A stretch of 64,000 nucleotides of DNA from Stx2-converting phage Stx2a_F451: sequence record AP012532; one strand, written 5' to 3'. Made by a program: the position numbers. Below, piece after piece: positions 12,001 to 18,000 of the stretch. The first letter of the stretch is position 1; each line of letters starts with the position of its first letter.

Positions 12001-15000
12001 AGGAACCAACCATGCATAATGCTCTGTCTGATGAAAAGCTATATATTGAAGTGCGAATATTTTTATCCCATCTTCTTCAACTGTCGCCTGGAATCTCCAG
12101 AAAACAGGCATTCCATCATGTTCAGTTTCTGATTCAGGAAAAGGTACGCTCCATGATTTTGTCATATCTCACCTCAAATAAGTGGTTTGCTGCCTAATTT
12201 CATTTTCTGGCGACCAACACAAGTCACCTCGCCGTCAGTTGTTTTGATTTCCGGTAGCCTGCCGCGTAAATGGCTACGTTTGGAAGACATACACCAGTTT
12301 CTGGTTGCTTATGTCCAAACTCATTCGCGTACACAATGGCCGCTCGCTCCAGATTGCGTCTGTATTCTTTCTGTTGCCAGATCACGTCCTGTGCCATGAA
12401 CTTAATTGGCTTAGCGTCTTCTATGCGCTCAGGCGTTTCGTGAGTACCTTTAGCCTGAATCTGCGCTCTGCTTAGAGTAGGGCGGTGTAATACTTCTGAA
12501 CTTATTGCTTCTTCGCGGGCCAGTACGCCGTTAGCTAATGCCTTTGCCTTTAAACGCTCACGACGACGAGAACGTGAATTGCCTTTGAACTGAGTTCTGC
12601 GTGTCATATAGACCTCCTGATGAACTTTGGTGGTGTGGTAGGTGGGAGACCCATTTCGACCTGTTTCGGCCTACTTCAATTCGGCAATAGTCCCGCAGGC
12701 CTCGCCGCTTTACGTGCGACATATTCCCGTCCATGAACCCTTCACCACACCCCAAAGTTCACTTTGGTTATTGCGCTTTGTCAGCGCCGTAGATTCATAT
12801 TCGAATCGTTGTATATTCACCGCCCTGGTGAGTAATGCGTCCTGCTGACGACGATAATAATGAACCAATAGTTCGACATTATCAAGAACTATTGGTACGA
12901 ATTTTGGTGATTTATTAACTCTACGAAGTATGATTCTGATATATAAGGAAATTTATTTTTGAAAATGTGGCTGATGAAGGTTATGCGGCAGGGATCATAA
13001 CTGCATGGTTTAGCGAGTTACATCAATAAATACAATTGGTTATGTTTTTTAGGTGGGCGAACGTGAGGCAAAGAAAACCCGGCGCTGAGGCCGGGCTAGA
13101 TTTTAAAGTATTTATCTTTTAGAGATGTAGATGTAAAACTTTTCGCCTTTGAAAATTTTTTGTCATCAGAAGGGCTTATGAACTCATCTTTTTTGTAGGG
13201 AACCGCTAATGCTGCATCACGTCTGCGAGGCAGCTTGCTTACTTCCTCGCGCTTTTTCATGATCAGTTATCCTTTAATAACCTATACAGTTTTGTAGGGG
13301 TACATCCTGAGGATATTGTTAAGTTCGTAGCACGCCTTTTCCGCCCATCATCGTATAAACGAAAACCAGTAGTAGACGAATTTTCTGCGTCAAAAACTAT
13401 AGACAGTATAGCGTCCCCAGACTTTTTTTGCCATTCGCATGTGCCGTTAGTTGGTTTCGTCATCTGTAGACGCCAGTCAAGAACGCCATCACTTATAGCT
13501 GAGAGATCGTTTAGTACATCTAGTACGGATTGATATCTTTCATTTGGATCTACATGAATGCATTTGTTCACTATTGTTATTAATTTTTTATGTATATGGG
13601 GAGGATACTCTTTTAATGGATAGCAGCCATTAATTATCGACTCTCTGAGTTGTTCAATCGTGCTAAATGCAGATCTTTCTCTTTCAAAATTATCATGTCC
13701 AACACACATTCTATATATGGTTAATCCTGCCTGATATATGTCATATGTGAAATTATAATCATTTGTTGATAAAGAAAAATATTCCGGTGGCACATGAAAA
13801 TGATATCCAAACTCAGGCGCAGCTCTCGATTCCTCATTGACTAACTGAGATAATCCAAAGTCAGATAGCATGGCCTCATTTCTGTTTGATATCATAATGT
13901 TATTAGGTTTTATATCAAAATGCATAAGACCTTTTGAGTGTATATGATAAAGTCCACTTAAAAATTGAATGGAATACCGTATTATCTCCCTGCTTGTAAG
14001 ATTATTTTTTTTCATTAATTGGTTTAGCGAACCATTATGATAAAATGGCATGGCTATATAGATATTGCTCTCACATTGAGCAGCATACTGAACTTGCACA
14101 ATATTTGGATGTGCATGTTTATAGAGAAGCCTTGCTTCATTAAAGTAGTCGTCGTGGTTAGTGTTTTCTTTTTTTTCTATTTCTTTAATCACCAAGTCAT
14201 GAGCTAGGTGTCTGTCATGAGCCAGATATACTTTTGAAAAACAACCCTGTTCTTCTAGATCACTAATCCATTCGAATTCTACATCAGCTCTTTTGTATGG
14301 AGTTAGCATCCCCTTACCTCCGCAGATAGTGCAGCCAAAACAGCTTCATTTGTTTCAGTTGTAAAACCAGAATTATCGATTCCATTTATATTGCGGTGTG
14401 ACTTCAATATTTCTTTATACTCGATCTCTGTTAGGTTCAATGATGATTTCATGCCAGATTTTCTAATAGTGTAATATTTTCTTACATCACTGCTTGAAAA
14501 TGCTTCTTGAATAACAGCTTCTATATAAAGGCGGTCAATGCTAAGATTATCAGAGTTTGATTCAGTAACGCGTATGGCAGCTAATTCAACATTATATAAA
14601 TTAAGAATGTCGAGGATGTTATTTCTCACATACTTTAATTTTTCTGGTGTGTCTAAGGTCGAAGGTATTTTAATAACATCAACACATTTGAGTGCAGACT
14701 CATTAGTGCAATATACAACAAAAGATGTAACTTTGGGCGCCGCTCTAACACCTAGTATTCTCATTTTTTATATCCTATTTTAGAATCAGGCCGCATCTCT
14801 GCGACCATCCATCATCCAAACGTCTCTTCACTCATCCGAAGAAGCAGCAATCCGGGTTAGCACGCACAAGCTCAAGCGCATCAGTCAGCGAAAGTTCAGT
14901 ACTGTACTGATGCCATTTCATATCCTTCCGCATCCAATAGATTTTCCATCTATCCAGAGAACGTATGTACTTGATTCTTGCTGATGGCAGGATGTTTGTT

Positions 15001-18000
15001 TCACCTGGATTGCCCTGCCACACGGGGCGCTGTTCGCCGATATCTATCGTTTGGTCATTGATGCTATAAACAATATCCAGTTCATTGCGGATATGTTCAG
15101 GCGGCCTTATGCTTTCAATGAATTGGTGAACTTCTTTTTTTACTGCTTGATATTCAAGGTCATTGAACGCCATCTATCCTCCTTACCCAAACGTCTCTTC
15201 AGGCCACTGGTTACCAGCTATGTGACGATGAAGTCACGAACTTTTCAGCCACTCCCTTGCCTCGATGTCATCCAGATGGCGAGATTGCTTCAGAATACCA
15301 GCTACATACTCCACCTTTGCTACTTGATGATAAGGCAACGTTATAGGCCTGTGATCCTGGTTAATGCTTGTAAATTGGTATTCTCCATCTCTGTCATAGC
15401 CAAGAACCTTAATCATGTTGTGTCCTTCAACGGTTCTGACAAACACCTCATCACCCGGGAATACTTTGGTGTTAGGCTCAATGAGTACATATTCTCCTGA
15501 TTTTATTCTGGGCCACATGCTGTCTCCTTTCACACGAAGACCAAAGGCATCTGGATCATCGCTATAAATTTTGAGCCACCCATCGCGCTCTTCGGTCATC
15601 TCGATGGCACCATCAACACCAAGAATTGCCTCACCAACCACGCGCACTAACCCTTTTTTTAATTTGCCAACAAATGAAAGAGTATCTTCATCATTCGCTC
15701 CATTTAACGAAGTGCCGTGCTGAAGCCAAACAACATCAACGTTTAGAAATTTCGCAAGCGCATTCATTTTTTCCTGACGCGGTAAAGACTCAGCATTAAA
15801 CCATTTGCTAACGCCTTTGGACGAAAGAGAAAGGGCACGGGCTATAGCCATTCCCCTACCATGTTCATCAAGACCAGCTTCTTTACAGGCTTGCGCTAGC
15901 CGCTGGGCGAATTCTTTGCGCACTTTTTCATTCTGAACCATGAGTACGATACTAAAGCACTTGCAAAAACTTTCAGTTCAACCATAATACGTACTGAAAG
16001 TACGAAAAAGGATATTCCTATGCAAAATCTTGATGAGCCGATTAAAGGTGTCGGCATCCCTGAAGTTGCGAAGGCTTGTGGAGTTAGCGAAAGGGCTGTC
16101 TATAAGTGGCTCAAAAACGGCTTCCTCCCTAAGACTGAGTTTTTTGGGAAAACTAAATACGCATCAAAAATCGAAGAGATTTCTGGTGGCAAATATCAAG
16201 CAAGCGAAATGCTTGAAATAAGCAAAAAGAACCTTCTGGCTGCATAAGTAACACCGCTATTTTCACAATGGACATTCGTCCTACGTCGCTGACAAAGCGA
16301 GTCCCAATATATCTGACCAACTAAGGCCATATGCGTTTCCACGCATACCTTTCAACTAACTATTCACTATTGGAAATCTTAAGAAATGGAACAAACAAGT
16401 TACAGCAAACTATCCCAGCGTGACGTTGATCGCGCAGAAACTGATTTACTCATCAACCTGTCAACGCTTACCCAGCGTGGTCTGGCAAAGATGATTGGCT
16501 GTCATGAATCGAAGATAAGCAGAACGGACTGGAGGTTTATTGCTTCGGTCTTGTGTGCTTTCGGAATGGCATCAGACATCAGTCCGATTAGCAGGGCTTT
16601 TAAGTATGCGCTTGATGGACTCACCAATAAAAAACGCCCGGTGTGCAAGACCGAGCGTTCTGATCAAATACAAATGGAATTTTAACAACATCCAACGAGG
16701 TAATTATATGCGAAAAACGCAGGAAAATAAACGCGTTAATCACCGAAAAGATGTGCTACGTGACCAGTTTTATCAGGGGGTTAATCCAGCAATAGCTGTG
16801 CCACTGAGAGAAATACTTAACAGGTACAAAACTTCGGAGAAGTCAAAATGAGCATGAATCTTATGGCTAAGGCCATGAATATAAAGGTTGGCAACCCACT
16901 GAGAAAACTGGTTCTGATTAAACTTGCCGATAACGCCAATGATAATGGCGAATGCTGGCCTTCATATCAACATGTCGCTGACCAGTGTGAGGTGAGCAGA
17001 TCGACAGTAAAAAGTCACATTAGGGCACTGGAAGAGATGGGGCTTTTGAAAAGGGAATTCAGAAGAAAAGGAGAGCTTAACCAGTCAAACGTTTTTTATC
17101 TGACGCTGGATAATGCACAACAAATCCAACCAGAATCAGGTGGGGCAGGAGCTGCCCGGGGTGGGGCAGGAGCTGCCCTAGGGGGTGGGGCAGGAGCTGC
17201 CCCCAGAACCTATCACTCTTTTGAACCAGTCAATGAACCTAAAAACATTATGTTCGAACATGTCCGAACAGAGTGTGAAAAAACTCCTGACCGTCACGAA
17301 GAAACCGACAAGGCATTCGAGGAAATATTCTGGTGTGCAGGCATGCGGAAAGCCGGGAAGAAAAACGCAGCTTCAGCATTCAGAACACAGTTCAGGGAAT
17401 GGCGTAAAACTACCAGGGGGACGGCAAGCGAGTTTGCCACGATGCTGGCAGAAGACATTGCGTGCAGGCTCGGTAAGCAGTTCGGGTTCGACAGGTTGTT
17501 ACCATCGAGCTACCTGAACGGTCAACGCTGGAACGACGAGAAGCCAGAAACTATTCAACCACAATCCAAACCATCATCCGCAATCACCGTATCGAAAACT
17601 GGCTACGTGTTTTTCGACAGGTGAACCATGAAATCCAGAATCAAATCGTTACTTATCGCTGGCTATAACCATGGCTGGCTTAGTTCTGCATTCGTTGAGT
17701 TCTGGTTTAACCGTCTCGATCTGAGGTCAGCGTAATGACTCCAAGTGAACTGAGCGACCTGCTTTGGGCGCAGGTTGACAGGGTGGCTCCGCACCTGTTG
17801 CCAAACGGCAAGAAAGAGGGGCATGAGTGGGTTGCCGGTAACGTCAACGGTGACAAGGGAAACAGCCTTAAGGTCAACATTAGCGGCAAGAAAAAATGGG
17901 CTGATTTCGCTGAGGGAGACGGCGGTGACATGCTTGATTTGTGGATGGCATGTCGTGGAATTAACCTGCATCAGGCTATGCAGGAAGCGAAAGCATTTCT

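Follow-up and report, generated by a model that had tools for sequence, protein, structure and literature searches.

The interval between the cI repressor gene and N in the Stx2-converting phage Stx2a_F451 (sequence record AP012532) holds four open reading frames (ORFs) on the minus strand. Three of them, coding for a RuvC-fold protein of 153 amino acids (aa), the eukaryotic-like kinase Stk and a basic protein of 54 aa, are treated here as a cassette of genes A, B and C; the fourth codes for a DUF3024 protein. The window, meaning the whole stretch of DNA analyzed, is 64,000 nucleotides (nt) long, and all coordinates refer to it:

14303-14764, minus strand: gene A, the 153-aa ORF, RuvC fold
13263-14309, minus strand: gene B, stk, 348 aa, kinase (Pkinase)
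13096-13260, minus strand: gene C, the 54-aa basic ORF (phrog_4063)
14832-15173, minus strand: the 113-aa DUF3024 ORF (PF11225, PADLOC PDC-S43)
15234-15941, minus strand: cI repressor, heading the P_RM (maintenance) operon, with Peptidase_S24 and HTH_3 domains; context, outside the cassette
13076-13097, minus strand: intrinsic terminator tM, overlapping the stop of the 54-aa ORF and closing the operon
15187-15201: copy 1 of an exact 15-nt direct repeat, CCAAACGTCTCTTCA, following the cI stop and preceding the DUF3024 ribosome-binding site
14816-14830: copy 2 of the same repeat, CCAAACGTCTCTTCA, 2 nt past the DUF3024 stop
12224-12607: N, downstream of the module

All four ORFs lie where the initial annotation had placed them, and the junctions it described are readily seen. 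The stop of the 153-aa gene overlaps the stk start by 7 nt (ATGCTAA); the ATG of the 54-aa ORF lies 2 nt past the stk stop (TGAtcATG) and is preceded, 9 nt upstream, by an AAGGA Shine-Dalgarno sequence, and the stop of this ORF enters a hairpin at 13076-13097. This hairpin, which a terminator scan resolves into an 8-bp stem rich in GC (6 of the pairs) ahead of a T-run, is annotated in phage 933W (NC_000924) as tM, where the cI maintenance transcript ends; the same record annotates cI and, immediately upstream of it, pM and the oR1-3 operators. The DNA of the cI-to-N region is 100% identical to that of 933W, Phi24B and about 35 other Stx phages, and since in 933W the hairpin is tM and N lies beyond it, the claim that these genes occupy the position of lambda rexAB, with cI upstream on the same strand and tM, then N, downstream, is correct. 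When 15 kb are compared, the window agrees with Phi24B, phiXuzhou21-Stx2a, Stx2a_F403 and Min27, and not with 933W itself, from which it differs in its replication genes. A search for internal promoters, which might separate the genes into distinct units, returned promoter-like sites at chance level only (10 found vs 10.5 expected), and cI, DUF3024, the RuvC-like gene and stk shift in concert in the transcriptome of Phi24B, their log2 fold changes lying between -1.2 and -1.4 (PMC10789677).

The linkage of genes A, B and C was evaluated in two directions. When the 153-aa family was used as a seed, a Stk homologue was found directly downstream, on the same strand, in all of the 39 genome loci retrieved. 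When Stk was used instead (80 viral loci, 78 evaluable), a 153-aa homologue was found directly upstream in 78, the other two ending at a contig edge by Stk. There is no exception in either search direction, and the linkage of gene A to Stk persists down to 29-40% identity across phyla, the hosts of the gene A-seeded loci including Gamma-, Beta- and Alphaproteobacteria, Bacteroidota, Clostridia and Acidobacteriota. The distance from the stop of gene A to the start of gene B falls between -8 and +10 nt in 64 out of 64 unique junctions, 43 of which overlap. A basic ORF of 50-65 aa, whose start falls between -26 and +20 nt relative to the Stk stop, is present in 117 out of 119 loci; one of the two exceptions is truncated at the edge of its contig, and in the second a homologous ORF lies at +88 nt. 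Such an ORF is found shortly after Stk in 118 out of 118 loci that can be evaluated. After removal of duplicates the figure is 79 out of 81 loci, vs 25% of random positions in the same loci. Among evaluable loci, members of this Stk subfamily are never found without both neighbor genes.

Selection acts on all three genes: in diverged enterobacterial orthologues the ratio of nonsynonymous to synonymous substitution rates (dN/dS) is 0.04-0.08 for the RuvC-fold gene, 0.08-0.21 for stk and 0.2-0.4 for the small ORF, which is thus under purifying selection. As each of the four proteins of the interval also matches a protein family, in every case a PHROG one, none of them is a chance ORF. Two-way linkage, recurrence of gene C and dN/dS together define the 153-aa, stk and 54-aa genes as a conserved tricistronic cassette, apparently translationally coupled, of which the 54-aa ORF, itself apparently coupled to stk, is a real gene. 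The cassette is found behind different cI-type repressors in different prophages and, outside prophages, adjoins genes for an OLD-family nuclease, a LlaJI restriction enzyme, a FRG/PDC-S15 protein and integrases, a neighborhood which fits a defense role. The proposal of the initial annotation that the genes flanking stk work with the kinase is thus strongly supported for the 153-aa and 54-aa products, found beside Stk in every evaluable locus, and not for DUF3024, which assorts independently. That the three cassette genes function together is, in our opinion, very probable.

The central gene of the cassette is the best characterized. Stk matches Pkinase (PF00069) at 2.2e-46, above the curated threshold, and is 100% identical to the product of 933W stk. 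In 33 diverse homologues all of the catalytic residues are invariant, namely the ATP-binding K42, E58 of helix alpha-C, the catalytic loop H130-x-D132-x-K134-x-x-N137, D150-F-G and, in the APE motif, P175-E176; W279 and W293 do not vary either. The protein features an extra conserved C-terminal domain (about 275-348), made of four strands and a helix, the strands lying within residues 290-326 and the helix at 338-347 of the AlphaFold2 model (pLDDT, the predicted local distance difference test score, 87). The loop HFDIKPNN (130-137) carries the Ser/Thr-type signature D-x-K-P-x-N; the literature speaks of a tyrosine kinase. As the nearest structural neighbors are a mixture of RAF-type and Tyr kinases, Stk is predicted as likely to be of dual specificity.

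The primary study of the 933W kinase is that of Friedman et al. 2011 (Mol Microbiol 82:567). Three papers citing it (PMC3564112, PMC3681748, PMC8008677) describe Stk as cotranscribed with cI, endowed with little activity in uninfected cells and activated upon infection by HK97, which is aborted; in one of them (PMC3681748) abortive infection is attributed to the kinase activity of Stk. Once activated, the kinase is reported to phosphorylate widely. The role of exclusion kinase, mentioned in the initial annotation, is thus backed, for HK97, by PMC3564112 and PMC3681748. Neither partner proteins for Stk, nor a RuvC-fold or small-protein partner of any defense kinase, were found described in the literature searched.

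The product of gene A has an RNase H-like RuvC fold, but the family, aligned through 122 representatives clustered at 50% identity, lacks the catalytic acidic tetrad of RuvC (Asp7, Glu66, Asp138, Asp141), as read from a weak sequence alignment. Asp7 is replaced by R7 in 121 out of 122 representatives, Glu66 by R/K65 in all of them and Asp138 by a variable residue, 137; only Asp141 has a carboxylate counterpart, E140 (116 out of 122). Residues G5, R47, R78, E82 and E87 are instead invariant, and E68 is nearly so. The Pfam RuvC model (PF02075) scores the 153-aa protein below threshold (14.2 bits vs 22.2, E 0.042), and over its N-terminal half only; the sequence profile of the family did not find RuvC in the PDB, where it returned only spurious hits. 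With respect to the RuvC resolvases of PF02075, the 153-aa protein is only 12-17% identical, near-neutral rather than basic (median isoelectric point, pI, of the family 6.4, vs 9.6 for E. coli RuvC) and always encoded with a kinase. DNA binding in the RuvC manner was also considered, and is weakened by this near-neutral charge. Because the catalytic carboxylates are replaced and the family is near-neutral, its designation in RefSeq as a "RuvC-like Holliday junction resolvase" probably misleads: judging from the alignment, the protein looks like a RuvC fold re-purposed to bind or regulate, and the loss of both carboxylates and basic charge would make a protein-binding or dimerizing scaffold, or a sensor, more likely than a nuclease.

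The product of gene C has a single match, phrog_4063 (2.5e-39), a PHROG family of unknown function. Gene C proteins are weakly similar to one another, and all are basic (median pI 10.0; 10 for the one in the window); most begin with MKK. In 66 unique sequences one Arg, R13 in the window, is invariant, and a C-terminal aromatic motif is common to them. With its invariant Arg, the small protein is a candidate inhibitor, pseudosubstrate or adaptor.

Taken together, the three products are proposed to constitute one latent kinase complex, a model that we favor as the most likely, though with less assurance than the functional association itself. The proteins would be made in fixed proportion from the P_RM transcript, with Stk as the effector, and A and C as regulatory subunits, holding Stk off and/or coupling it to a phage cue; once activated, Stk would phosphorylate broadly and lead to abortive infection. 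Physical association and subunit roles are what we infer beyond the established anatomy, co-occurrence, fold, residue substitutions and purifying selection, and any specific role for either partner is much less certain than their joint function with the kinase.

As to the cue, the HK97 trigger of Stk is reportedly gp41. In HK97 records the gene between 40 and 42 encodes an Erf-like single-strand annealing protein. In AF069529 (1176-1781; our locus L190) the erf product is labeled 'Gp40', though a separate gene 40 adjoins it and 42 and 42.1 follow; erf is thus probably gp41 by position, and the label an annotation slip. A gp41 trigger would fit a link between a recombinase cue and a partner shaped like a Holliday junction resolvase. 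In cassette prophages, a search for an Erf recombinase gave C-terminal tail matches in 3 loci and no Erf N-terminal domain, the flanks being too short for this result to be informative. A broader view, in which Stk-type kinases form a widespread three-subunit immune system across phyla, with a catalysis-free, RuvC-derived sensor of phage recombination and a peptide of ~55 aa as a brake, is correspondingly speculative, and we regard it as doubtful.

Several points weigh against the proposed complex. Tight linkage indicates shared inheritance and a unit of expression, and is no proof of physical association; moreover, subfamily-specific motifs were used to retrieve the loci, and the 100% figures describe this Stk subfamily, not all defense kinases. 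An effect of A or C on exclusion was not found in the literature searched, and stk expressed from a plasmid may already have been shown to suffice; a kinase can indeed act by itself, PD-T4-6 having been validated as a single-gene kinase defense (PMC9519451). As for gene A, the profile alignment to E. coli RuvC from which the substitutions are read is weak (hhalign probability 1.4%), though co-linear with the fold match, and an acidic active site of another kind might be provided by the conserved E68, E82, E87 and E140.

In the first of the alternatives, the 153-aa protein is the effector, a nuclease acting on phage or host DNA, which Stk, as the sensor of infection, activates by phosphorylating it; the small protein has an accessory part. 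We consider it unlikely: Arg and Arg/Lys face Asp7 and Glu66 throughout the family, the residue opposite Asp138 varies, the Pfam score is sub-threshold and the charge is not that of RuvC, while the published phenotypes credit kinase activity with abortive infection.

Slightly less likely still is an addiction system of the toxin-antitoxin (TA) type, where Stk would be a toxin restrained by the small and/or the RuvC-fold protein, the prophage or mobile element would be stabilized and exclusion would be a by-product. A small overlapping gene beside a potentially lethal enzyme, the location of the cassette on prophages and near integrases and the reported silence of Stk until triggered (PMC3681748) are all in keeping with it. 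However, the cassette lies in a lysogen-expressed immunity operon and beside defense genes, HK97 exclusion is the documented phenotype, and the order, with partners flanking the enzyme, and the absence of a DNA-binding antitoxin domain are atypical of type II TA systems. In any case, this explanation overlaps with the latent kinase complex rather than excluding it.

It is improbable, to a somewhat greater extent, that Stk acts alone, the 153-aa and 54-aa genes being unrelated passengers of block transfer. PD-T4-6 kinases do act as single genes (PMC9519451), and neither partner matches PADLOC models; yet unrelated passengers would hardly account for a linkage kept across phyla to such low identity, with overlapping frames retained, and for a purifying selection stronger on the 153-aa gene than on the kinase. 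How fast independent genes separate is well illustrated, in the very same slot, by DUF3024.

The 113-aa protein is a full-length DUF3024 (PF11225, 1.2e-30, 106.5 bits vs a cut-off of 24.9), and also matches over its full length the PADLOC single-gene defense candidate PDC-S43 (4.4e-41); no functional study of either was found in the literature searched. At 97-100% identity, DUF3024 occurs without the kinase cassette in 40 out of 67 further DUF3024-seeded viral loci; in the two of these that were examined, a different gene, for a 177-aa protein, comes next. Conversely, DUF3024 is missing from all distant cassette loci and from phages whose version of the cassette is 97% identical (L066-L072 and L076-L078) and is directly preceded by another repressor of 242 aa. 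The two go together only in the 933W-immunity group and, with a divergent DUF3024 copy, in Proteus-type prophages (L002, L088-L091, L097 and L100). A gap of 67 nt separates DUF3024 from the cassette, and a repeat search identified the exact 15-nt repeats listed above as bracketing it, at a spacing, 371 bp, equal to the DUF3024 gene plus one repeat. By our estimate, a chance 15-nt repeat is expected roughly 0.005 times in the 3.2-kb region. Most DUF3024-carrying loci of the 933W-immunity group have both copies, and four have only the one beside the 153-aa gene.

These features mark DUF3024 as an independent single-gene insert, and as a defense candidate, PDC entries being candidates, so that the four-gene module of the initial annotation resolves into three genes plus one. 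That all four genes form one functional module, as might be suggested by their sharing one operon, one strand and a joint transcriptome change, and by the divergent DUF3024 preceding the cassette in Proteus-type prophages, is very improbable, given how often each is found without the other, the bracketing repeats and the intervening gap.

Following from the independence of DUF3024, the cI-to-N interval is a hotspot of cassette exchange, here occupied by 1 + 3 genes transcribed with cI in the lysogen. The two cassette-free viral contigs examined, L131 and L141, from lambdoid phages, have the slot between DUF3024 and N filled by the 177-aa ORF (MQTKSYTIKAFQDF…; 4532-5065 in each), which may be another exchangeable accessory or defense cassette. 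The repeat CCAAACGTCTCTTCA is also found once at the 3' end of HK97 cI (L121, 4244-4258), and may be a recombination junction common to lambdoid immunity regions.

As a site where independent defense cassettes are swapped, this interval of Stx phages bears on the superinfection of lysogens of enterohemorrhagic E. coli. A 933W lysogen excludes lambda about 10^6-fold, independently of cI, and the exclusion is relieved by imm21, imm434 or immP22 swaps (PMC6989128); both DUF3024 and the kinase cassette are candidates for this effect. Stk, which is among the few kinases of phage origin to have been characterized and was an early case of abortive infection by a kinase, is scored by annotation tools as a one-gene system. 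If a true three-protein complex is formed, kinase-only experiments and annotations may miss its control logic, and a RuvC fold devoid of the RuvC catalytic residues, with a kinase as its constant companion, would represent a novel type of regulatory subunit among the eukaryotic-like kinases of bacteria; Stk silencing and its activation by HK97 would then be testable through R7, R47, R78, E82 and E87 of the partner, and R13 of the small protein.

Two other ORFs of the window were noticed. A 968-aa primase/DnaB-like helicase ORF (17735-20641, plus strand) belongs to a replication module found in place of the 933W O/P genes, and is apparently interrupted, just past the P-loop, by an intein that carries a homing endonuclease of LAGLIDADG type (GVNGHGK / ACPLNEPILLADG … LLGDGSL … LLETDGYV … VATHN / TEVVGH). 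A 156-aa ORF of unknown function (11695-12165, minus strand; phrog_1636, no Pfam match) lies between N and an annotated ssb, an Ea10 homologue, and corresponds to HK97 gp45 in both length and position.

Among known systems, MADS provides the best PADLOC kinase match of Stk (mad6, 6.7e-50), limited to the kinase domain. Membership in MADS was rejected, the NCBIfam MADS6 model giving 122 bits vs a cut-off of 460, and the other three proteins matching no mad model. The KKP system of Pf prophages (PMC11341870) is likewise a multi-gene prophage phosphorylation module directed against lytic phages; it consists of two kinases and a phosphatase, with neither a RuvC-fold nor a small partner, whereas the present cassette has no phosphatase.

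Lambda RexA/RexB occupy the same slot, downstream of cI on the P_RM transcript, with the terminator and N following, and share the logic of an abortive infection system expressed in the lysogen. Rex is, however, a two-protein membrane ion-channel system, not a kinase, with no sequence or domain similarity to the window proteins: none of the four gave a Rex-related match in Pfam, PHROG or PADLOC, and the correspondence is one of position only.

Staphylococcus Stk2 is the subject, reportedly, of work by Depardieu et al. 2016. It is also a prophage defense kinase, silent until triggered by phage PacK, and then phosphorylating many host proteins (reviewed in PMC13276650). Its kinase subfamily is another one, Stk reaching 122 bits with the NCBIfam Stk1/PASTA model vs a cut-off of 450, and it comes without a described RuvC-fold or small basic partner.

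Closer is PD-T4-6, also a eukaryotic-like abortive-infection kinase, the PADLOC model of which (PDLC04042) matches Stk at 1e-37. The match covers the kinase domain only (residues 20-273, vs a profile of 292 positions), and the definition and validation of PD-T4-6 concern a single gene (Vassallo et al. 2022, PMC9519451), while members of the Stk subfamily have in addition a conserved C-terminal domain and two obligate neighbors. The PADLOC annotation of an O157:H7 genome reports PD-T4-6 and PDC-S43, as would be expected if Stk is counted there as a one-gene kinase system and DUF3024 as a candidate of its own.

Closest of all is 933W Stk, which is the same gene, at 100% DNA identity, expressed with cI and reported, in the papers cited above, to abort HK97 infection by its kinase activity. 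It has been treated as a single protein both in the literature searched and in PADLOC-based annotation, whereas it is found here as the middle gene of a three-gene cassette: the kinase was already known, and the three-gene architecture, with a RuvC-fold partner devoid of the RuvC catalytic residues, appears to be new.

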